A stretch of DNA of 55,878 bases, from assembly GCA_045577655.1 (NCBI GenBank), contig JAZNIU010000017.1:1-55878 (forward strand). Direction: 5' to 3'. Below the pieces are notes generated by a model. It had not been told where the DNA came from, made no database searches, and worked only from the letters and a program-made list of their open reading frames with translations. The position numbers and the translations under genes were made by a program. The DNA comes from Clostridia bacterium. Lineage in GTDB: Bacteria; Bacillota; Clostridia; RUG12999. Below, one piece after another: positions 1 to 40,762 of the stretch (its first letter is position 1; each line of letters begins with the position of its first letter).

Positions 1-790
1 TTTTTATCAGATAAACCCTGTTCAGACAGAAAAATTATATCAGCTTGCTGCAGAATGTGCAGGAGATTTAAAAGACAAGGTTGTGTTTGATTTATATTGC
101 GGCGCGGGAACAATTTCGCTCTTCTTATCAGAAAAAGCAAAAAAAGTTTACGGTGTTGAAATTGTACCCGAAGCAGTAGAAAATGCACATGAAAACGCAA
201 AGACAAACGGAATAAAAAATGCTGAGTTTGTTTGTGGTGATGTGCAGAAAATTATTGAAGAAATTTACGATACAGGCGTGCGTGCCGATGTTGTTGTTAT
301 GGACCCGCCGCGTAAAGGCAGTGACGAAAAAACACTTAATATAATCCTTGATATGAAACCTGAAAAAATTGTGTATGTGTCATGTAATCCCGCAACACTT
401 GCAAGGGATTTAAGAGTGCTTGAGGATGGTGGATATAAAACGGAAAAAGTAACACCGGTAGATATGTTTCCGCATACTTGCCATGTGGAGACGGTGGTAT
501 TGTTGTCCCGACTAAAACCTGACGATGTAATCGAAGTTGAGTTGAAATCAGAAGATTTGCACTTGACATCTATTGAGGTAAAAGCAACTTATCAGGAAAT
601 AAAGGATTATATTTTTAGAAAATACGGTTTTAAGGTATCAAGTTTATATATCGCACAGGTTAAACAAAAACTCGTACTACCAATGGGCACGAATTATAAC
701 ACAAGTAAAAAAGGAACAAAGGTTCCAATTTGCCCATCCGAAAAAGAAAAAGCAATTAAAGATGCACTAAAGCACTTCAAGATGCTGTAA
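1..790 (+). CDS. rlmD: 23S rRNA (uracil-C5)-methyltransferase RlmD/RumA, 5'-truncated by the window, with an element-derived C-terminal extension
   Basis: Frame is open from the window start ([13 protein letters not shown]...). SAM motif [15 protein letters not shown], catalytic [12 protein letters not shown] and [12 protein letters not shown] are present; about 94 extra aa follow HVETVVLL. Confidence 0.93.
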
Positions 791-799
791 GGAGATATT

Positions 800-1705
800 T
801 TGATTATGAAAGTGAATTTGATGACTTGGAATACTCGGTTGTACGAATATGGGAATATTATTGATCAACAGAAAAAGAAACCTGTAAAACCAATTGATGT
901 TATCAGAGATAACGCTGTTCTTGAGGTTATAAAGGACCATATTGATAAAAAAGAAAATGCTATTGCTGTATTGCAAGAGATTCCTCTTCGTAGCAACATA
1001 ACTAATAGAGAACATGAAATTTTTACCCTGATATGTGATACTTTCCCAGAAAAAGATTACACCATACTATATAATGTAAATGAAACAGTCAGAAATCAAA
1101 TAAAAATGACAGTTGTTATTTCGAAAAAAAACTTCGTTAAAAAAGATGAAGATGGAATAAATAGTAACAATAAAGACTACTGCAACTGCTTTGTTTCGTT
1201 TATGGTTGGTGAGTTGAAAATTTTGGCAGTACACCAATCGCTAAGAAAAGATGGATTTATAGAGGATAAGATAAAAGATACCAATTATAATCCAGATATA
1301 ATCATTGGTGATTTTAATGCAGGTGATTATAATAAAAGTAATGAAACGAAAGAGTTTCAGGAAAATCGCGAAAAATATAGGGACTTAATTAAGAAATACA
1401 CAGATAAAGTGAAAAAAGTTACATCAATAAATAATACTGAAATAGACCATATTTTGGTAAAAGATGGTCTAAATTTAAAAAATGAAAGTTGTTATGTTGA
1501 TGATAACAATATCCTTTCTGACCACTATCCAATATACTATAGTTTTGAGATTGAGCATTGCGAGAAATACTTGGATGCGGAGGAATATCCTGTTGATAAA
1601 GAAAAATATCCCTACGCCTATGAGTGCACAAAGTGTGAAAGAGTTGTAAAAAACGAAGAAATGTATGCTATACCCGATATGTGTGACGAATGTAGAAATG
1701 GGTGA
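800..1705 (+). CDS. Endonuclease/exonuclease/phosphatase (EEP) family protein with a Cys-rich C-terminal tail
   Basis: Motifs MTWN, LQEI, GDFN, IDHI, SDHYPI. RBS AAGGAG at 789-794; start could be TTG 800 or ATG 806. Tail contains CTKC and CDEC. Confidence 0.85.
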   Translation: MIMKVNLMTWNTRLYEYGNIIDQQKKKPVKPIDVIRDNAVLEVIKDHIDKKENAIAVLQEIPLRSNITNREHEIFTLICDTFPEKDYTILYNVNETVRNQIKMTVVISKKNFVKKDEDGINSNNKDYCNCFVSFMVGELKILAVHQSLRKDGFIEDKIKDTNYNPDIIIGDFNAGDYNKSNETKEFQENREKYRDLIKKYTDKVKKVTSINNTEIDHILVKDGLNLKNESCYVDDNNILSDHYPIYYSFEIEHCEKYLDAEEYPVDKEKYPYAYECTKCERVVKNEEMYAIPDMCDECRNG

Positions 1706-2388
1706 AATTTATGATTTATGTTTGTAGTGACATTCACGGATTTTATTCGGAATATTTAGACGCCATATCACTTTTAGGAAATAGCGATGAGTTATACATA
1801 ATAGGCGATGTTCTTGACAGAGGCAGTGATGGGATAAAAATCATTCAAGATATTATAAAGAGAGACAATGTTACTCTTGTCAAGGGAAACCACGAGTTAA
1901 TGATGCTGGAGATTTTTGAAAATATCCTTTTTAGTTTTGGCAATGGAAACGAGATACAGAGCATTATAGAGGAGGAACTCAAAATTTCTCAAATTGGTCA
2001 GGAGAAAACCTTGATTGATTTTTCCAAACTTGATAGATGCGAACAGAGTGAAATAATAAACTTTATAAAAAGTCTACCGCTTTATGAGGAAGTAAAAGTA
2101 AATGGTAGAAACTACATACTGGTACACGCTGGTATTCCTGATTTTGATGGGTTGCCAATCGAGTATTATGAGGAAAATGAACTTTTATTTGGACCTCACG
2201 ATTATAAAGAAATTCATTATGAGAATACTACGATTATTTGCGGGCATCTTCCTACGCGATTTATTGATGGCGCCACCCCTGATGTAATATACAGAGGTGC
2301 AGACACAATAAATGTTGATTGCGGCTTAGGATTTGGTGGACAACTTGGAGTATTATGTTTAGACACAGACGAAGAAATCTATTTTTAG
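1702..2388 (+). CDS. Calcineurin-like metallophosphoesterase (PPP Ser/Thr phosphatase family)
   Basis: SDIHG, GDVLDRG, GNHE, HAG, GHLPT, DCG motifs. GTG start overlaps the upstream TGA (alternative ATG at 1711). Confidence 0.88.
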   Translation: MKFMIYVCSDIHGFYSEYLDAISLLGNSDELYIIGDVLDRGSDGIKIIQDIIKRDNVTLVKGNHELMMLEIFENILFSFGNGNEIQSIIEEELKISQIGQEKTLIDFSKLDRCEQSEIINFIKSLPLYEEVKVNGRNYILVHAGIPDFDGLPIEYYEENELLFGPHDYKEIHYENTTIICGHLPTRFIDGATPDVIYRGADTINVDCGLGFGGQLGVLCLDTDEEIYF

Positions 2389-2422
2389 CGATTTAAATTG
2401 ACCATGTTGGGAAAACAAAAAT

Positions 2423-2458
2423 CACGTTGAGTGCGTTGCATTATTGTGCAGGAAATAA
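2423..2458 (+). pseudogene. Displaced original 3' end of rlmD (attR-like site)
   Basis: Translates as H-V-E-C-V-A-L-L-C-R-K-stop, the canonical RlmD C-terminus. Confidence 0.75.
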
Positions 2459-2500
2459 TATGCATATACTTCATTATTCATCAAAATAATACAAAAACTA

Positions 2501-2529
2501 TTGACTTTTTTTCTACATAATAATATAAT
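2501..2529 (+). promoter_or_regulatory. Sigma-A promoter of the T-box leader
   Basis: TTGACT (2501-2506), 17 nt spacer, TATAAT (2524-2529). Confidence 0.8.
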
Positions 2530-2541
2530 ATATTTCATAAA

Positions 2542-2812
2542 TGCGATGATCGGAAACAAGTAGCGCTGCAATTATGTTTTCAAGAGAACTGTCGGTTGGT
2601 GCGAGGCAGAAACAGTTGCAGAGGTGAATACATTCCGGGAGCAGTGCACCGAACGGCAAGGATTTTGCTTAGTAGGCTGCAACGGGAGCACCCGTTACAG
2701 TGCGGGGGCATAGTTCTTCTGTGCCTGAAAAGTGGTCGCATCTTTATGCGGCAATTGAGGTGGTACCGCGGATATAATTCCGTCCTCTGCAAAAAAATGC
2801 AGAGGGCTTTTT
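2542..2812 (+). promoter_or_regulatory. T-box riboswitch, predicted Tyr specifier (UAC)
   Basis: Stem I base CGGAA/TTCCG, AGTA S-turn, AGAGA box (2583), GGTGCGA loop (2598), GAA-TAC specifier (TAC at 2629-2631), T-box AATTGAGGTGGTACCGCG (2753-2770), terminator CCTCTGC-N8-GCAGAGG followed by a U-run. Confidence 0.93.
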
Positions 2813-2857
2813 GTTTTAGAAGCCCTGTGCAGATTTAAACAGGAAGGAAAGAAAAAT

Positions 2858-4495
2858 ATGCCTATTACCGAAATTTTACAAAAGAATGCAGATTTTTATC
2901 CCAACGATGTTTCCCTTGTTGAGATAAATCCGAAACTTGAAAACCAGACGAGGCTTACATGGAGGGAATATTCGCTGATAGAAACAAGTCCCAACGAAGC
3001 TTACAGAACAGAAATTACCTGGAGTCAGTTCAACAAAAAGGCAAACCGGTTTGCAAACCTTTTGCTGACAAAAGGCATTAAAAAGGGAGATAAGGTTGCC
3101 ATCCTTTTAATGAACTGTCTTGAATGGCTGCCCATTTACTTTGGTATTTTAAAAACGGGAGCGCTTGTTGTTCCGCTTAACTACAGATATACTTCTGACG
3201 AAATAAAATACTGTCTTAAACTTGCAGAGGCAGATGCCATTATTTTTGGTCCGGAGTTTATCGGCCGTGTTGAAGAGATTTTTAACAGAATACCCAAAGT
3301 TAAAGACTGGATTTATGTTGGCAACGACTGCCCGACTTTTGCACAGTCCTATGACAAGCTTGTAACCTACTGTTCATCATCGTCGCCGAAAATAGAACTG
3401 TCGGACGATGATGAGGCAGCAATATATTTTTCTTCCGGAACAACCGGTTTTCCGAAAGCTATTGTCCATGCACACAGAAGTCTGATGCATGCTGCCAGAA
3501 CGGAACAGGCACATCATTCCCAGACAAAAGAAGATGTTTTTCTGTGTATTCCGCCCCTTTACCATACAGGTGCAAAAATGCACTGGTTCGGAAGCTTTTT
3601 AGTTGGCGGCAAAGCTGTGCTGCTTAAAGGTATTAAACCGGAATGGATTTTAGACACTGTTTCCAAAGAAAAATGCTCAATTGTCTGGTTGCTGGTACCC
3701 TGGGCACAGGATATTTTAGACGCTATAGACAGGGGAGATATAAACCTTGAAGATTATGACCTTTCAAATTGGAGACTTATGCATATCGGAGCTCAGCCGG
3801 TGCCTCCGAGCCTCATAAAAAGATGGAAAAAGCTTTTCCCAAACCACGAATATGACACAAACTATGGTCTTTCTGAATCTATCGGACCGGGTTGCGTTCA
3901 CCTTGGAGTCGAAAACATTCATAAGGTTGGTGCTATCGGTAAAGCCGGTTTTGGCTGGGAGGTTTCCATTGTAGATGAAAACAAAAAACCGGTTAAAAAA
4001 GGTGAAATCGGTGAGCTTGCAGTTAAAGGACCTGGCGTGATGCTTTGTTATTTCAAAGACGAAAAAGCGACAAACGAAGTTCTTGCTGACGGTTGGCTCT
4101 ATACGGGAGATGTTGCCCAGGAGGATGAAGACGGATTTATTTTCCTTGTTGACAGGAAAAAAGACGTTATCATTTCGGGCGGAGAAAATATCTATCCTGT
4201 TCAGATTGAAGATTTTATCAGGAAAAATGATAAAGTAAAAGACGTTGCGGTAATTGGACTTCCGCATGCAAGACTTGGCGAAATTTCTGCAGCTGTTATA
4301 GAAGTTAAAGAGGGCTGCACGATGACTGAAGAAGAAGTTGAAGATTTCTGTTTTGATTTGCCAAGATACAAACGACCGGGTAAATTTATTTTTGCAGAGG
4401 TTCCGAGAAATCCGACCGGAAAAATTGAAAAACCAAAGCTCAGGGAAATTTACTGCGGCGAAAGTGTTGTTGCGCAACAAAATGAGATTAAATAA
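2858..4495 (+). CDS. AMP-forming acyl-CoA synthetase (ANL superfamily)
   Basis: YFSSGTTGFPK P-loop, YGLSE, WLYTGD, DRKKDVIISGGENIYP, PRNPTGKIEK. Confidence 0.92.
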   Translation: MPITEILQKNADFYPNDVSLVEINPKLENQTRLTWREYSLIETSPNEAYRTEITWSQFNKKANRFANLLLTKGIKKGDKVAILLMNCLEWLPIYFGILKTGALVVPLNYRYTSDEIKYCLKLAEADAIIFGPEFIGRVEEIFNRIPKVKDWIYVGNDCPTFAQSYDKLVTYCSSSSPKIELSDDDEAAIYFSSGTTGFPKAIVHAHRSLMHAARTEQAHHSQTKEDVFLCIPPLYHTGAKMHWFGSFLVGGKAVLLKGIKPEWILDTVSKEKCSIVWLLVPWAQDILDAIDRGDINLEDYDLSNWRLMHIGAQPVPPSLIKRWKKLFPNHEYDTNYGLSESIGPGCVHLGVENIHKVGAIGKAGFGWEVSIVDENKKPVKKGEIGELAVKGPGVMLCYFKDEKATNEVLADGWLYTGDVAQEDEDGFIFLVDRKKDVIISGGENIYPVQIEDFIRKNDKVKDVAVIGLPHARLGEISAAVIEVKEGCTMTEEEVEDFCFDLPRYKRPGKFIFAEVPRNPTGKIEKPKLREIYCGESVVAQQNEIK

Positions 4496-4512
4496 GGAAA
4501 GGGAAGTTTAAA

Positions 4513-6249
4513 ATGAAAGAATTGATGCTTGGTAATGCAGCTGTTGCAAGAGGGGCTTACGAGGCAGGGGTTACAGTTGTTGCTTCTTACCCCGGAACAC
4601 CCAGCACAGAGATTACCGAAAACATTGTTAAATATGACGAAATATATGCAGAATGGTCGCCCAACGAAAAAGTTGCGGCAGAAGTTGCTATCGGTGCGTC
4701 TATTGCAGGGGCAAGGAGCATGTCCTGTATGAAACACGTGGGTCTTAATGTTATGGCAGATCCGGTGTTCACTGTTAGTTATATCGGTGCAAACGGTGGG
4801 CTTGTATTTTGTGTTGCCGACGACCCGGGCATGCATTCTTCGCAGAACGAACAAGATTCAAGACACTATGCAAAAGCTTCTAAAATTGCAATGCTTGAAC
4901 CTGCTGATTCAGAGGAATGTAAAGAATATACAAAACTTGCTTTTGATATTTCGGAAAAATATGACACCCCTGTTTTCATAAGATTGTCTACAAGAGTTTC
5001 TCACTCGCAAAGTCTTGTTGAACTTGGCGAAAGAAAAGAAGCAGGACTTAAAAATTATGAAAAGAACATCGGCAAAAACGTTATGATGCCGGGTAATGCA
5101 ATCAAACGTCACGTTGTTGTTGAAGAAAGAATAGAAAAGTTAAAAGCACTCAGCGAAGAAACATCGCTTAACAGTGTTGAAATGAACGGTAGTGATATTG
5201 GCGTAATTTCTGCCGGAATTTCACATATGTATGCTAAAGAGGCTTTAGGCGACAGGGTTAACTACCTTAAACTCGGCATGGTATACCCTCTGCCGGAAAA
5301 ACTTATAAAAGATTTTTGCAGCAAATGTAAAAAAGTGTTTGTTGTTGAAGAACTTGATCCGGTGATTGAAGACCATTGTAAAGCCATTGGTGCAAATGTC
5401 AGCGGCAAGGAAAACTTTACTCTTTTAGGAGAATATACGCCGACTATGATAAGAAAAGCAGTGCTTGGCGAAAAATCTCCCGAATTTAATCAGGTAGAAG
5501 AAACAATTCCGGTTCGTCCGCCGGTAATGTGTCCGGGTTGTCCGCACAGAGGAACCTTTTATGTTCTTAAAAAGCTTGGACTTACTGTCAGCGGAGACAT
5601 CGGATGCTATACTCTCGGCGCGGTTGCACCTCTTGCAAGTATGGATACAACAATCTGTATGGGCGCTTCCGTCAGCGCGGCGCACGGTATGGCAAAAGCC
5701 AGAGGTGAAGAATTCAACAAAAAGCTTGTTGCTGTTATAGGTGATTCCACTTTTATGCATTCGGGTATTACAGGGCTTGTTGACATTGTTTACAATAAGG
5801 GAAACAATACGGTTATTATTCTTGATAACTCAATCACGGGAATGACCGGACATCAGCAGAATCCGACGACAGGATACACAATTAAAGGGGAAAGCACAAA
5901 CCAGGTTGACCTTATTGCACTTTGTCGCGGAATAGGGGTTGAGCATATTGTGGTTGCTGACCCGTTTGACATTAAAAACTTTGAAAAAGTTGTTAAAGAA
6001 GAAACAGAAAGAGAAGCTCCGTCGGTAATAATTGCGCAGCGTCCCTGCGCACTTCTCAAAACTGTTAAATATTCAGGTTTTTGCAAAATAACCGACAAAT
6101 GTAAAAAGTGTAAAGCCTGTATGAAAATTGGTTGTCCTGCAATTTCAATTAAAGACGGTAATGTTATGATTGACCAGAACCAGTGTAACGGTTGCGGACT
6201 CTGTACAAATCTTTGTCCGTTTGGTGCAATTGAAAAGGAGGAAAACTGA
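4513..6249 (+). CDS. iorA: Indolepyruvate:ferredoxin oxidoreductase alpha subunit
   Basis: LMLGNAAVARG, YPGTPSTEI, NEKVA, MKHVGLNV, SSQNEQD, CPGCPHR, GDIGCY, TPP motif GDSTF..DN, C-terminal 2x[4Fe-4S] domain. Confidence 0.95.
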   Translation: MKELMLGNAAVARGAYEAGVTVVASYPGTPSTEITENIVKYDEIYAEWSPNEKVAAEVAIGASIAGARSMSCMKHVGLNVMADPVFTVSYIGANGGLVFCVADDPGMHSSQNEQDSRHYAKASKIAMLEPADSEECKEYTKLAFDISEKYDTPVFIRLSTRVSHSQSLVELGERKEAGLKNYEKNIGKNVMMPGNAIKRHVVVEERIEKLKALSEETSLNSVEMNGSDIGVISAGISHMYAKEALGDRVNYLKLGMVYPLPEKLIKDFCSKCKKVFVVEELDPVIEDHCKAIGANVSGKENFTLLGEYTPTMIRKAVLGEKSPEFNQVEETIPVRPPVMCPGCPHRGTFYVLKKLGLTVSGDIGCYTLGAVAPLASMDTTICMGASVSAAHGMAKARGEEFNKKLVAVIGDSTFMHSGITGLVDIVYNKGNNTVIILDNSITGMTGHQQNPTTGYTIKGESTNQVDLIALCRGIGVEHIVVADPFDIKNFEKVVKEETEREAPSVIIAQRPCALLKTVKYSGFCKITDKCKKCKACMKIGCPAISIKDGNVMIDQNQCNGCGLCTNLCPFGAIEKEEN

Positions 6250-6250
6250 T

Positions 6251-6817
6251 ATGAGCGGAAAAATAATGATTGTTGGCGTTGGCGGACAGGGAACACTGCT
6301 TGCTAGCAGAATTCTCGGAGGTGCGCTTATAGGTGAAGGATATGACGTTAAGCTTTCCGAGGTGCACGGTATGAGCCAGAGAGGCGGAAGTGTTGTAACC
6401 TATGTTAAATATGATAAAAAAGTTTTTTCTCCCATAATTGACAAAGGGGAAGCGGACATAATTTTAGCTTTTGAAAAGCTTGAAGCATTAAGAGCACTCC
6501 CGTTCCTTAAAAAAGACGGAAAAATGATTGTTAATGACCAGACCATTGACCCGATGCCTGTTATAACAGGTGCTATGGAATATCCGGAAAATATCACGGA
6601 AAAACTTGAAAAAATTGTGGATTTAACAGTTGTTCCGGCGCTTAAACTTGCAAAAGAAGCGGGCAGCGCAAAAGCTGTTAACGTTGTCTTGATTGGCGTT
6701 ATGGCAAAGAATACCAAAATTCCGTATGAAAGATGGATTGAAACAATAAAAAATACTGTCCCACCGAAATTTTTGGAAATTAATCTGAAAGCTTTTGAGC
6801 TTGGATACAACTTTTAA
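6251..6817 (+). CDS. iorB: Indolepyruvate:ferredoxin oxidoreductase beta subunit
   Basis: GVGGQG and SEVHGMSQRGGSV motifs. ATG 6251 follows AAGGAGG. Confidence 0.95.
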   Translation: MSGKIMIVGVGGQGTLLASRILGGALIGEGYDVKLSEVHGMSQRGGSVVTYVKYDKKVFSPIIDKGEADIILAFEKLEALRALPFLKKDGKMIVNDQTIDPMPVITGAMEYPENITEKLEKIVDLTVVPALKLAKEAGSAKAVNVVLIGVMAKNTKIPYERWIETIKNTVPPKFLEINLKAFELGYNF

Positions 6818-6831
6818 CAGAGGTGTAAAAA

Positions 6832-8139
6832 ATGAGTTTTTATCAAACTGAAATTGAGTGTATGGACCGTGAGGAACTTAAAAAACTCCAGTCTGAGCGT
6901 CTGAAATGGCAAGTTGAAAGAATGTACGACAAAGTTTCGTTATTCAGAGAAAGAATGCAGGAAAAAGGACTTACTCCCGAAGACATTAAAAGTGTTGACG
7001 ACATTGTAAAACTTCCATTTTCATATAAGCAGGATTTAAGAGACTATTATCCATATGGGCTTTTTGCCGAGTCTATGGATAAAATTGTCAGAGTCCATGC
7101 TTCTTCCGGTACAACCGGCAAACAGATTGTTGTTGGTTATACAAGAAAAGATCTGGACGACTGGTCGGATTGCGTTGCCAGAATGCTTAGTGCAATAGGA
7201 GCATCAGAAGAGTCTTTTGTGCAGGTTTCTTATGGTTACGGACTGTTCACCGGCGGTCTTGGCGCACACGACGGAGCACAGAAAATAGGCGCAACTGTTA
7301 TTCCTACTTCTTCCGGTAACACGGCAAGACAAATTCAGACAATGATAGATTTTGGTTCTACAATTTTGTGCTGCACACCTTCCTATGCAATGTATCTTGC
7401 AGAAACAATTGAGGAAATGGGTGTCAAAGACCAGCTCAAACTTAAAGCCGGAATTTTTGGTGCTGAACCCTGGTCGGAAGAAATGAGAAAAACCATTGAA
7501 GATAAACTCGGAATTAAAGCGTATGATATATATGGCCTTTCTGAAATAATGGGACCGGGTGTTTCTTTTGAATGTGAACATCAGTGTGGAATGCACGTCA
7601 ATGAAGATATGTTTATTCCTGAAATTATCGACCCTGACACAGGCGAACCGGTTGAAGAAGGACAGTCTGGAGAACTGGTGTTTACAACAATTACAAAAGA
7701 AGGGTTCCCGCTTATACGCTACAGAACAAGAGATATTTGTTCTTTGAATTATGAAAAATGCAGCTGCGGAAGAACTTTTATCAGAATGAGAAAACCAACC
7801 GGCAGAAGCGATGATATGATGATTATCCGCGGTGTAAACGTTTTCCCGTCGCAGATTGAAGAAGTTCTGCTCAAGGTAAGTGGTGGAGAAATTTCTCCAA
7901 ACTATCAGATTGTTGTAGACAGGGTAAACAACACAGACACTCTTGATGTTAATGTTGAAATGAGCGAAAAACTCTTCTTTGACGATGTTAAATCAATCGA
8001 AAAGGTAGAAAGAACCATCACCGAACAGTTGAGAAATGTTCTTGGAATAGGGGCAAAGGTTCATCTTGTTAATCCAAAATCCATTGAACGTAGCGAAGGA
8101 AAAGCAAAACGTGTAATTGATAAGAGAAAAATACACTGA
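6832..8139 (+). CDS. paaK: Phenylacetate-CoA ligase (PaaK/PaaF family)
   Basis: DLRDYYPYGLFA, HASSGTTGK, YGYGLFTGG, GAEPWSE, YGLSEIMGPG, GRSDDMMIIRGVNVFPSQIE, SEGKAKRV. Confidence 0.94.
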   Translation: MSFYQTEIECMDREELKKLQSERLKWQVERMYDKVSLFRERMQEKGLTPEDIKSVDDIVKLPFSYKQDLRDYYPYGLFAESMDKIVRVHASSGTTGKQIVVGYTRKDLDDWSDCVARMLSAIGASEESFVQVSYGYGLFTGGLGAHDGAQKIGATVIPTSSGNTARQIQTMIDFGSTILCCTPSYAMYLAETIEEMGVKDQLKLKAGIFGAEPWSEEMRKTIEDKLGIKAYDIYGLSEIMGPGVSFECEHQCGMHVNEDMFIPEIIDPDTGEPVEEGQSGELVFTTITKEGFPLIRYRTRDICSLNYEKCSCGRTFIRMRKPTGRSDDMMIIRGVNVFPSQIEEVLLKVSGGEISPNYQIVVDRVNNTDTLDVNVEMSEKLFFDDVKSIEKVERTITEQLRNVLGIGAKVHLVNPKSIERSEGKAKRVIDKRKIH

Positions 8140-8157
8140 TTTGAAAGGATTGATTGT

Positions 8158-8583
8158 ATGTTTATAGAACAGATTTCCGTTTTTGTGGAAAACAAATTTG
8201 GACGACTTGCAAAAATTGTTGAACTTTTCAGTAAAAACGATATAAACTTAGGCGCACTTTCAATTGCAGACACAACAGATTTTGGAATACTCAGAATTAT
8301 TGTTGATAAACCGGACCTTGCGCTTAAAGTTCTTAAAGAAAACGGCATTACTGCAAAGAGCACGGAGGTTATTGCGGTTGCAATTGAAAATCAGCCGGGC
8401 GGACTTTCTAAAGTGCTTGATACACTCACCGAAAGCGAAATTGCTATTGAATATATGTATGCTTTTGTCGGTAAGGTTGAGGGGAAAGCGCTTATGGTAG
8501 TTAAAACAGACAAGATGGCCGAAACAGTTGATTCGCTTACCCAAAAAGGTGTTGAAATTTTTGAAAAATGTGCAATATTTTAA
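8158..8583 (+). CDS. Tandem ACT-domain (amino-acid-binding) protein
   Basis: QISVFVENKFGRL, SIADTTDFGILR, PGGL, IEYMYAF; typical partner of paaK/ior. Confidence 0.9.
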   Translation: MFIEQISVFVENKFGRLAKIVELFSKNDINLGALSIADTTDFGILRIIVDKPDLALKVLKENGITAKSTEVIAVAIENQPGGLSKVLDTLTESEIAIEYMYAFVGKVEGKALMVVKTDKMAETVDSLTQKGVEIFEKCAIF

Positions 8584-8601
8584 TTGAAAAGAGGAAATGA
8601 A

Positions 8602-9249
8602 TTGAGCAAAAAAAATAATATTTTATTGCCGGTATTTTCATTAGTTGTAGTTCTGCTCTTTTCGCTTATTCTTATTTTTCCGGGAACAAGAGAAGTATTT
8701 AAAGGGGCGTCCTCATCTCATCCTTTTATTATGGGATTTATAAAGTTTGCTTTTCTGGCAACGGTTGGTGAAATTCTTGCACTCAGAGTTGCCGCAAAGT
8801 GCTGGAAATCTCCGGTAAAAATCTTTGCACGGTTTGTTATTTGGGGGCTTATAGGCATCTGGATAACATATATGATGAAAATATTTTCTGCTGGCGTGGA
8901 TGGCCTCATGAAAAGCGGCATGCTTCCGGGCGAAGGCAGCACTTTCCTTAAAGCATTATACACAAGTGCTACAATGAATCTTACTTTCGGCCCGACTTTT
9001 ATGGCGGTACATAAATGCAGCGATAAATATCTTGAACTGAAAGACAGAGGAGAAAAAGAAATATCTGTCGGAAAAGTTGTGGAGGACATAGACTGGAAAG
9101 TTTTTGTTAAGTTCACGCTGTTTAAAACTGTGCCAATTTTCTGGATTCCGGCACACACAATAACCTTTATGTTGCCTGTTGAATATCAGGTAATAATGGC
9201 TGCAGCTCTTTCGCTGGCACTGGGGCTTATTCTCAGCATAAAAAAATAA
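8602..9249 (+). CDS. Membrane protein, Mpv17/PMP22-like
   Basis: Several hydrophobic helices; C-terminal FWIPAHTITFMLPVEYQV resembles the Mpv17/PMP22 signature region. TTG 8602 follows GAGGA. Confidence 0.6.
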   Translation: MSKKNNILLPVFSLVVVLLFSLILIFPGTREVFKGASSSHPFIMGFIKFAFLATVGEILALRVAAKCWKSPVKIFARFVIWGLIGIWITYMMKIFSAGVDGLMKSGMLPGEGSTFLKALYTSATMNLTFGPTFMAVHKCSDKYLELKDRGEKEISVGKVVEDIDWKVFVKFTLFKTVPIFWIPAHTITFMLPVEYQVIMAAALSLALGLILSIKK

Positions 9250-9253
9250 TACT

Positions 9254-9293
9254 AAGGCAGAGTGAAAGCTTATTTCCTCTGCCTTGTTTTTTT
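9254..9293 (+). terminator. Rho-independent terminator of the ior/paaK operon
   Basis: AAGGCAGAG...CTCTGCCTT followed by G and T7. Confidence 0.85.
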
Positions 9294-9328: not shown

Positions 9329-9357
9329 TTGACATTTGTTCTGTTTTACTGTATAAT
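9329..9357 (+). promoter_or_regulatory. Sigma-A promoter
   Basis: TTGACA, 17 nt, TATAAT (perfect consensus). Confidence 0.85.
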
Positions 9358-40685: not shown

Positions 40686-40762
40686 TGGTCTGAGTGGGGA
40701 GACTTGAACTCCCGGCCTCTAGAACCCCATTCTAGCGCGCTACCAAACTGCGCCACACCCAG
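40686..40762 (-). tRNA. tRNA-Pro (GGG), CCA encoded
   Basis: CTGGGTG acceptor stem, D-loop AGTTTGGTA, anticodon arm CTAGA-ATGGGGT-TCTAG, GTTCAAGTC T-loop, ACCA 3' end; 77 nt. Confidence 0.95.

Follow-up and report, generated by a model that had tools for sequence, protein, structure and literature searches.

The operon at positions 2501-9293 of the window, the 55,878-nt stretch of DNA from a Clostridia bacterium that was analysed here, appears to encode an arylacetate salvage pathway under the control of tyrosine starvation. In the reading we favor, with a probability of roughly 0.7, a Tyr T-box switches on genes that convert an arylacetate, chiefly 4-hydroxyphenylacetate, to its CoA ester and then, through the indolepyruvate:ferredoxin oxidoreductase (IOR) IorAB, to 4-hydroxyphenylpyruvate, the immediate source of tyrosine. 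Support for this reading comes from the conservation of the Tyr T-box, the transporters found in related operons, the AMP-forming nature of the ligases and the lack of Pta and kinase genes. We observe directly the RNA elements, the families to which the genes belong, their layout as a single unit and the conservation of the link to the Tyr T-box. Rumen and gut anaerobes can use arylacetic acids to make phenylalanine and related amino acids, a capacity followed in labelling work since the 1960s; we know of no assignment so far, in Firmicutes, of the genes responsible or of their control. Annotation routinely treats IOR genes as catabolic.

The regulatory region, like the genes it precedes, lies on the forward strand. 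It begins with a sigma-70-type promoter, TTGACT-17-TATAAT (2501-2529), which agrees with the consensus at 11 of 12 positions and ends 8 nt before the start of the T-box match. The leader (2537-2790), of the class I transcriptional type, is matched by the Rfam covariance model RF00230 over its full length (model 1-219 of 219; 128 bits against a gathering score of 93, E 4e-28). Structural alignment places UAC (Tyr; 2629-2631), and no other codon, at model positions 92-94, on the 3' side of the specifier loop, with GAA on its 5' side and, on its 3' side, an A followed by a helix. In the fold, the UGGU at 2761-2764 is part of a 7-nt antiterminator bulge, UGGUACC (2761-2767), and is complementary to the A73-CCA end of tRNA-Tyr; the tRNA-Tyr gene of this genome encodes its CCA end and has a GTA anticodon and A73 as discriminator. 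The 3' arm of the antiterminator (2779-2790) and the 5' arm of the leader terminator (2782-2791) share nucleotides 2782-2790, and the two structures compete. The terminator (2782-2817) consists of a hairpin with a 10-bp stem (2782-2807) and a U run; its folding energy is -17.8 kcal/mol, against -10.9 for the antiterminator, and as stable a fold was reached by none of 200 shuffles (z -4.6). All this agrees with the preliminary description, which, from the letters alone, had claimed a consensus promoter, a full T-box (proposing an Infernal-type RF00230 search as the check), a UAC specifier at 2629-2631 and a UGGU bulge suited to A73 of tRNA-Tyr; its picture of six close-set genes followed by one terminator likewise holds.

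On sequence and fold, then, the leader is a canonical transcriptional T-box riboswitch reading tRNA-Tyr, and tRNA-dependent antitermination is predicted. The founding example of Tyr-specifier class I transcriptional T-boxes is the Bacillus subtilis tyrS leader. The window's element has the attributes of this class (full-length RF00230 match, UAC followed by a purine, UGGU facing A73-CCA, competing terminator) and differs from classical members in its cargo, an acid-CoA ligase/IorAB/PaaK/ACT set rather than tyrS, a gene of tyrosine biosynthesis or an ordinary amino-acid transporter.

Downstream of the leader, six genes are separated by 17, 1, 14, 18 and 0 nt. The first (2858-4495) encodes a FadD-like AMP-forming acyl-CoA ligase of 545 aa with AMP-binding and AMP-binding_C domains. 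This protein falls under all NCBIfam cut-offs, and its nearest solved structures are FadD13, FadD5, feruloyl-CoA synthetase and 4CL; with fatty-acyl, feruloyl and coumaroyl ligases as its nearest solved relatives, its substrate is not readable from sequence. Gene context shows it to be the operon gene most constantly linked to the T-box, and we regard it as a candidate 4-hydroxyphenylacetate-CoA ligase. The next two genes encode the alpha subunit IorA (4513-6249; POR_N, TPP_enzyme_C and Fer4 domains) and the beta subunit IorB (6251-6817), whose ATG lies 1 nt past the iorA stop; both pass their equivalog cut-offs (TIGR03336, 739.5 bits against 650.9; NF005325, 285.2 against 230). They are followed by an AMP-forming arylacetate-type CoA ligase of 435 aa with an AMP-binding_C_2 domain (6832-8139), which we file as PaaK-family rather than PaaK since it misses the cut-offs of both TIGR02155 (543.1 against 646.3) and NF041878 (549.1 against 700). 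A 141-aa protein with a pair of ACT domains (8158-8583; PF19571 ACT_8, 110 bits) comes next. A domain search of the six reading frames revealed no Pta, acyl kinase or ADP-forming ligase family; the ligases are AMP-forming only. The operon contains no aminotransferase gene, and genes for class I/II aminotransferases are found elsewhere in the genome, as the preliminary description had supposed.

The last gene (8584-9249) encodes a membrane protein of 221 aa, or 215 aa if translation starts at 8602, with four or five hydrophobic segments. It reaches the cut-off of no Pfam or NCBIfam family; PF04117 (Mpv17/PMP22) matches it weakly, at 19 bits against a gathering score of 27. This weak match is common to 28 of 28 homologues, and a feature search run on a homologue named Mpv17/PMP22 clusters (0.95-0.97). 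The protein has 2056 homologues at E <= 0.001, and the best 120 of these 2056 are mostly unnamed or "hypothetical". The distant resemblance to Mpv17/PMP22 is best taken as a likeness; that the protein might serve as an uptake channel is a speculation. The operon closes with an intrinsic terminator (9253-9293; hairpin 9253-9286 and U run, -18.9 kcal/mol, z -5.0), which was identified from sequence and fold, its over-long loop having escaped the simple terminator scan.

The association of a Tyr T-box with these genes recurs across different gut and rumen Clostridia. Sixty relatives yielded 40 IorA loci, and in 8 of these a T-box lies upstream, on the same strand as the operon. Among 80 loci with a homologue of the FadD-like ligase, 75 have at least 350 nt of visible upstream sequence, and 43 of these carry a T-box on the same strand. 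Fifty-one operon leaders were aligned, namely the window's own, those of the 8 relatives and 42 from further loci. UAC is invariant in all 51, with Stem I identity to the window of just 52-72%; the base that follows it is usually A (38 leaders), otherwise C (7), G (5) or U (1). The 4-bp helix immediately 3' of UAC is 95.5% paired and shows changes on both sides in 4 of its 4 pairs, a covariation score reached by none of 500 shuffles, and helices slid by 1-3 columns pair at 27-59%. These pairs were counted on helices from the Rfam alignment; RNAalifold, run on a MAFFT alignment, recovered the distal Stem I helix and no other. The retention of UAC throughout, together with the covarying helix, indicates that the specifier is under selection and is no relic. 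Within the article texts searched, we found no published link between a Tyr T-box and ior.

Gene content around the core is more variable. Where sequence extends far enough downstream, iorA follows the ligase gene in 51 of 61 loci. Both ends are visible in 59 ligase loci. Forty-nine of these are linked to ior, 18 of them lacking a T-box; in a further 8 neither ior nor a T-box is present, and in 2 a T-box occurs with no ior adjacent. Contexts of the ligase homologues that lack ior are heterogeneous (aldo-keto reductase, ECF S component, DUF1893, pyrBI, MBOAT and others) and give no clue to the substrate. The paaK-ACT pair is optional, being present in 17 of the 29 T-box loci that extend far enough downstream, and the ACT gene follows paaK in 29 of 30 loci. 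A sodium:solute symporter gene is the first of the operon in 6 of the 8 relatives and is present in 22 of the 43 T-box loci. This symporter is closest to the PutP/PanF models, not to ActP, and may therefore carry tyrosine or another substrate. A CitMHS transporter gene stands at the end of one relative's operon (G006), and an Mpv17-like gene occurs within 3 other operons.

The following sequence of events can be proposed. When tRNA-Tyr(GUA) is uncharged, its anticodon would pair with UAC in the specifier loop and its free A73-CCA end with the UGGU of the bulge. Stabilised by the tRNA, the weaker antiterminator would then prevail over the stronger terminator, and RNA polymerase would read through to produce a single six-gene transcript. 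An arylacetate released by neighboring fermenters, chiefly 4-hydroxyphenylacetate, would be imported, in most relatives through the sodium:solute symporter and here perhaps through the Mpv17-like protein. Either or both of the AMP-forming ligases, FadD-like and PaaK-like, would convert the acid to its CoA thioester, and IorAB would carboxylate the thioester reductively, with CO2 and reduced ferredoxin, to 4-hydroxyphenylpyruvate. An aminotransferase encoded outside the operon would complete the synthesis of tyrosine. The ACT protein plausibly confers amino-acid feedback on the PaaK-type ligase, although this is a guess. In this scheme we infer, from the genes and their control, which substrate is used, that the reaction runs reductively and what the transporter and the ACT protein do.

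The salvage route would not replace de novo synthesis. The preliminary description had proposed to check whether genes for the shikimate pathway, pheA or tyrA are missing; the predicted de novo aromatic route is complete, with two DAHP synthases, aroB, aroQ, aroE-aroK, aroA, aroC, a chorismate mutase-prephenate dehydratase (CM-PDT) and tyrA. Matches to PDH_N (tyrA) and chorismate synthase (aroC) were also found in 8 of 8 operon-bearing relatives. The biosynthetic interpretation put forward in that description keeps its regulatory logic, the Tyr signal being conserved; a gene deficiency of the kind to be checked is not supported. Auxotrophy for tyrosine, or dependence on salvage, was considered and is rejected in view of the shikimate, pheA and tyrA genes. 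Since the genome has the whole route, salvage would be a second and cheaper supply of tyrosine beside an intact pathway. A comparable arrangement is known from Methanococcus maripaludis, where IOR gives aryl acids entry to a second pathway for aromatic amino acids (Porat et al., as cited in PMC4162585). In both, IOR and the activation of aryl acids from outside would serve biosynthesis next to a de novo route, and the gene content and regulation seen here fit such a pathway. The present operon differs in its bacterial host, its tRNA-sensing riboswitch, the extra FadD-like ligase and the transporter slot.

One could envision that the T-box truly reads tRNA-Tyr but that tyrosine acts as the sole sentinel for a general salvage of arylacetates, phenylacetate giving phenylalanine, indoleacetate tryptophan and 4-hydroxyphenylacetate tyrosine, with two ligases dividing the substrates. 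The presence of two different ligases within one operon and the optional nature of paaK-ACT would suit such a scheme; in addition, PMC13285125 reports phenyl-, hydroxyphenyl- and indolepyruvate as substrates of characterised IORs, and activity on PA, HPA and IA for the ligases and kinases that were assayed. We consider this unlikely, however, as none of the 51 leaders carries a Phe or Trp specifier ahead of the unit, and in this genome Phe-type T-boxes precede other genes, pheST and probably one for a DAHP synthase. That the signal is for tyrosine only, while Phe-type T-boxes serve other genes, argues for a Tyr-directed core of ligase and IOR. It is quite improbable, in our judgment, that the T-box gates some Tyr-related uptake or activation whose ligase product is not handed to IOR (an aryl-CoA for another use, for instance), with ior-paaK-ACT merely co-transcribed or served by promoters of their own. 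The 2 T-box-symporter-ligase units without adjacent ior and the 8 loci with the ligase alone in unrelated contexts would speak for such uncoupling, as would weak promoter-like matches within the operon; these, however, are no commoner than in shuffled sequence (26 against 19.8 +/- 4.1). Moreover, the gene gaps do not exceed 18 nt, the terminator scan found no site on the + strand between 2807 and 9250, and iorA usually stands next after the ligase gene.

A catabolic operon, in which tyrosine or arylpyruvate is oxidised to arylacetyl-CoA and the T-box follows some other logic or is a relic, seems to us very improbable indeed. The customary annotation of IOR would favor it, and the IOR of Bacteroides thetaiotaomicron is reported to participate in the conversion of phenylalanine to phenylacetate (PMC13285125), from which it follows that an IOR beside an AMP-forming ligase can run oxidatively in vivo. 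Nevertheless, turning on tyrosine breakdown with uncharged tRNA-Tyr would be self-defeating, the selection acting on the specifier is at odds with a relic, and the operon offers no ATP-yielding exit from the CoA ester. The same source describes the catabolic conversion of HPP to HPA as the work of an oxidoreductase, a phosphate acyltransferase and a kinase, and defines the route by an oxidoreductase beside PF01515 and PF00871, or beside the ADP-forming ligase PF13607; all three families are absent from the six reading frames. Its Clostridium scatologenes example, the oxidative Stickland route HpdDEFG-HpdJ-HpdK, interconverts the metabolites of the present scheme, from 4-hydroxyphenylpyruvate by way of the CoA ester to 4-hydroxyphenylacetate, but employs a four-subunit VOR-like enzyme with phosphate acyltransferase and kinase, and growth on tyrosine induces it. 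The IorAB of the window operon, in contrast, has two subunits, the ligases are AMP-forming and the switch is one for starvation. Similar in gene content are the Bacteroides loci in which IOR adjoins a PaaK-type AMP-forming arylacetate-CoA ligase, and for which the authors suggested a biosynthetic role. These belong to Bacteroidota, and PMC13285125 mentions no T-box; the Tyr T-box described here thus adds independent regulatory evidence on direction.

That dozens of species maintain a tyrosine-starvation switch before the ligase and IOR genes argues, on regulatory grounds, for biosynthesis as the direction, and the conserved unit provides a defined gene set with which arylacetate salvage can be tested. 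The modelling of gut arylacetate pools, which include 4-hydroxyphenylacetate, the precursor of p-cresol, would also change: some Clostridia would consume arylacetates, turning these acids back into protein and fixing CO2 in the process. It is tempting to go further, to a proposal we hold at somewhat under even odds. In this 1.3-Mb gut Clostridium, T-boxes might form a general acid-salvage regulon, half of the six (Tyr and, probably, Val and Ile) switching on acid-CoA ligases that feed reversed 2-oxoacid:ferredoxin oxidoreductases and so fix CO2 onto neighbors' fermentation acids under amino-acid starvation, in a cell that retains de novo synthesis of the aromatic amino acids at least. In that case the FadD-like protein would represent a 4-hydroxyphenylacetate-CoA ligase not described before, and the Mpv17-like one a channel for arylacetates in bacteria. 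The assembly has six T-boxes, with a UAC specifier in the operon leader only; tyrS (contig C9) has no T-box upstream. Three of the six gate acid-CoA ligases, two of them (contigs C55 and C26, with probable Ile/Val specifiers) preceding acyl-CoA synthetases fused to an HTH-cupin region, and one of these units continues into a three-subunit 2-oxoacid:ferredoxin oxidoreductase. These putative branched-chain acid salvage units resemble the window operon in the order T-box, acid-CoA ligase, oxidoreductase, and differ from it in the cupin-fused ligase, the three-subunit VOR-type enzyme and the specifiers.

The tyrosine unit opens with a near-consensus promoter found by motif scan (TTGACT-17-TATAAT, 2501-2529, + strand), which ends eight bases before a T-box leader (2537-2790, +) matching the Rfam model RF00230 over its full length (model positions 1-219; 128 bits against a gathering score of 93). 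The Rfam alignment places UAC (2629-2631, +) in the specifier loop where the codon belongs, with GAA on its 5' side, A on its 3' side and the closing helix next. Further on, an antiterminator of -10.9 kcal/mol presents the seven-base bulge UGGUACC (2761-2767, +). The leader terminator, followed by a U run (2782-2807, +; -17.8 kcal/mol, z -4.6), folds better than any of 200 shuffled sequences; its 5' arm shares bases with the 3' arm of the antiterminator, and it is the stronger of the two folds. The assembly has a single tRNA-Tyr gene (contig C45), with the anticodon GTA, A73 as discriminator and CCA encoded in the gene, and it thus matches the switch at both points of contact. A preliminary description made from the sequence alone had proposed a UAC specifier and a UGGU bulge suited to A73 of tRNA-Tyr; the structural alignment keeps the codon in its slot, and the folded bulge and the genomic tRNA bear out the second contact. 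As a switch, the leader is an ordinary member of the known T-box family.

The link between this switch and its genes extends well beyond the window. We sought IorA orthologues in 60 relatives, fetched 40 surrounding loci and searched these with a T-box profile built from the six T-boxes of the source genome; eight of the 40 have a T-box upstream on the operon strand. A ninth match (L049, 870-638, -) is on the other strand and is the leader of a divergent gene; it has another specifier and points away from that locus's own Tyr leader. In another locus, a T-box with a different specifier directly follows the ACT gene of the Tyr unit (L151, about 6201, +). A scan of species-representative genomes found 583 relatives of the unit's first gene product, a 545-aa ligase; the best 80 of these loci, at 74-87% identity, all come from metagenome-assembled genomes of gut, rumen or faecal Clostridia. 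Within those best 80, 75 loci leave at least 350 nt visible 5' of the first operon gene, and a same-strand T-box is present in 43 of them. Where both ends are visible (59 loci), T-box and ior genes occur together in 31, ior without T-box in 18, T-box without adjacent ior in two and neither in eight, so that about a third of the ior-linked loci (18 of 49) have no T-box. The ior unit is also patchy within the genus: IorA orthologues occur in two of five same-genus genomes (G002 and G005), and the other three (G001, G003 and G004; 96, 97 and 80% complete) gave weak paralogue matches alone (E about 1e-8).

We aligned 51 leaders: the window's own, the eight found in relatives, and 42 complete ones drawn from the ligase loci. 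UAC occupies the specifier columns in all 51; the base 3' of it varies (A in 38, C in seven, G in five, U in one), and in four leaders a single additional base separates GAA from UAC. Identity to the window's leader in Stem I is just 52-72%. The 4-bp helix anchoring the codon is 95.5% paired, with both-sided changes in all four pairs, and its covariation score was reached in none of 500 shuffles. Sliding the structure by one to three columns, a control that preserves relatedness, leaves 27-59% of positions paired, against 93% for the real structure, which is somewhat favored because it derives from the way Rfam aligns the window's leader. Since UAC is invariant at such low Stem I identity and the anchoring helix covaries, these alignments indicate that the Tyr reading of the leader is under selection across many genera.

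Six open reading frames follow the leader, with intergenic gaps of 17, 1, 14, 18 and 0 nt. They encode, in order and all on the + strand, the 545-aa ligase of the ANL superfamily (AMP-binding and AMP-binding_C domains, under every NCBIfam cut-off), IorA (TIGR03336, 739.5 bits against 650.9), IorB (NF005325, 285 bits against 230), a ligase of the PaaK family (543 bits, where the equivalog cut-off is 646), an ACT-pair protein (PF19571) and a 221-aa membrane protein that reaches the cut-off of no family. The nearest solved relatives of the first ligase are fatty-acyl, feruloyl and coumaroyl ligases. A motif scan found no terminator-like site on the + strand inside the six-gene unit, which ends at a strong hairpin and U run (9253-9293, +; -18.9 kcal/mol, z -5.0). 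The arrangement described beforehand, a promoter, six close-set genes and one terminator, proved right in every detail checked.

Across related operons, the order T-box, ligase, iorA, iorB forms a conserved core. The paaK-ACT pair is optional: of the 29 T-box loci whose downstream sequence reaches far enough, 17 have it. In 29 of 30 loci, paaK is followed by ACT. The operon opens with a sodium:solute symporter in six of the eight relatives, and 22 of 43 T-box loci have such a gene; the symporter of the relatives is nearest to the PutP/PanF models, not to ActP, and could carry tyrosine itself. One relative has a CitMHS transporter as its last operon gene. In place of these transporters, the window, the same-genus genome G005 and three other loci have the Mpv17-like membrane gene. 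One genus has an Amidohydro_2 gene (PF04909) between symporter and ligase (L043, 2031-2822; L047, 2027-2818; L045, 1938-2741); a locus from the ligase scan (L138, about 5208) also has one in the same place in a Tyr T-box operon. The conserved core and the variable transporter slot therefore describe a unit that joins a starvation switch to a membrane protein, an acid-activating step and indolepyruvate:ferredoxin oxidoreductase (IOR).

The assembly has six T-boxes in all, the Tyr leader among them. One with specifier CUC (Leu) precedes an isopropylmalate-synthase-like gene and one with UUC (Phe) precedes pheST. A third (C36; 1501-1750, -, in L004) precedes an AroFGH-type DAHP synthase gene (380-1489, -); its specifier register is ambiguous, being UCC by the Rfam alignment and UUC (Phe) with one more helix base pair, and the latter suits the cargo better. 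Two more precede cupin-fused acyl-CoA synthetases. On C55 (L160, C55:13100-22500), a T-box at about 99-343, probably with specifier GUA (Val), heads genes at 309-8094: a 791-aa cupin and AMP-ligase fusion, then a CN-hydrolase, a CbiA-like ATPase, a three-subunit 2-oxoacid:ferredoxin oxidoreductase and a Cys/Met PLP enzyme. This looks like a branched-chain counterpart of the Tyr unit. On C26 (L161, C26:3000-9400), the T-box probably has AUC (Ile) as its specifier and lies before a gene (3722-6142, -) for an 806-aa HTH, cupin and AMP-ligase fusion; this gene stands alone, with FeoB downstream. As tyrS (C9) has no T-box, no Tyr-type T-box was found in the assembly apart from the leader of the Tyr unit. 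Acid-CoA ligases are gated by three of the six T-boxes, a parallel that makes a route from fermentation acid to amino acid more credible for the Tyr unit.

The preliminary description held that the operon runs biosynthetically, from 4-hydroxyphenylacetate through its CoA ester to 4-hydroxyphenylpyruvate and tyrosine. That interpretation is supported in part. We consider this salvage mechanism as a whole probable, at roughly 0.7; the reductive direction of IOR and the identity of the substrate are inferred. According to passages of a 2026 study (PMC13285125), catabolic arylpyruvate oxidoreductases are partnered by phosphate acyltransferase, acyl kinase and ADP-forming ligase families. The window's operon differs from the catabolic systems described there, as a domain search found none of these families in its six ORFs. 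The same passages suggest that a Bacteroides IOR lying next to an AMP-forming arylacetate-CoA ligase may be biosynthetic, as in methanogens; they also report the IOR of B. thetaiotaomicron in the conversion of phenylalanine to phenylacetate. In Methanococcus maripaludis, aryl acids feed a second aromatic amino acid pathway via IOR (Porat et al., as cited in a passage of PMC4162585). Our literature search, whose scope excluded older T-box regulon surveys and supplements, found no T-box tied to an indolepyruvate oxidoreductase or phenylacetate-CoA ligase, and a broader one, on T-boxes with ferredoxin oxidoreductases or reductive carboxylation, returned nothing on the subject as judged by titles and the start of abstracts. 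What is new is the cargo of the T-box, together with its implication for the direction in which IOR runs in gut Clostridia.

The salvage proposal gains from the conserved, selected Tyr link but not from the suggestion that shikimate, pheA or tyrA genes might be missing, for these are present. The source genome, 98% complete at 1.33 Mb in 57 contigs, encodes two DAHP synthases, of which one follows a T-box. Contig C4 carries aroB and aroA, C38 carries tyrA, and on C41 are aroC, aroQ, an aroE-aroK fusion and a gene for chorismate mutase-prephenate dehydratase. All eight operon-bearing relatives have matches to PDH_N and chorismate synthase. Salvage would therefore be a second, cheaper supply and not a substitute for a lost pathway, a situation resembling that of M. 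maripaludis. The aminotransferase expected elsewhere in the genome has at least four candidates, full-length class I/II genes outside the operon. The C41 cluster is adjoined by an MFS transporter gene (L158, 3762-4958, -) whose product weakly resembles the 3-phenylpropionate transporter (75 bits to NF008346, whose cut-off is 259).

The 221-aa membrane protein has 2056 homologues at E <= 0.001, and names among the best 120 are mostly absent or "hypothetical"; one source assigns one homologue to the Mpv17/PMP22 family. PF04117 matches below threshold in all 28 aligned members (best E 4e-4; 19 bits for the window's protein, where the cut-off is 27), and a feature search started from a homologue led to clusters named Mpv17/PMP22. 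Hydropathy indicates four or five hydrophobic segments. Among the 60 relatives, G005 alone has the gene, and there it shares a contig with the ior fragment. As the transporter slot is filled differently in different operons, we would guess at a role in arylacetate entry. This large Mpv17/PMP22-like family has members in Clostridia and Bacteroidota and lies outside the coverage of Pfam.

Beyond the operon end, a perfect promoter (TTGACA-17-TATAAT, 9329-9357) serves the next gene, which encodes a 443-aa WG-repeat protein (PF14903, 9284-10615). The promoter falls within the mechanically called start of that gene, whose true start probably lies downstream of it. Elsewhere in the window, a tRNA gene (40689-40762, -; 59.9 bits to the Rfam tRNA model) has GGG in its anticodon loop and is probably a tRNA-Pro.
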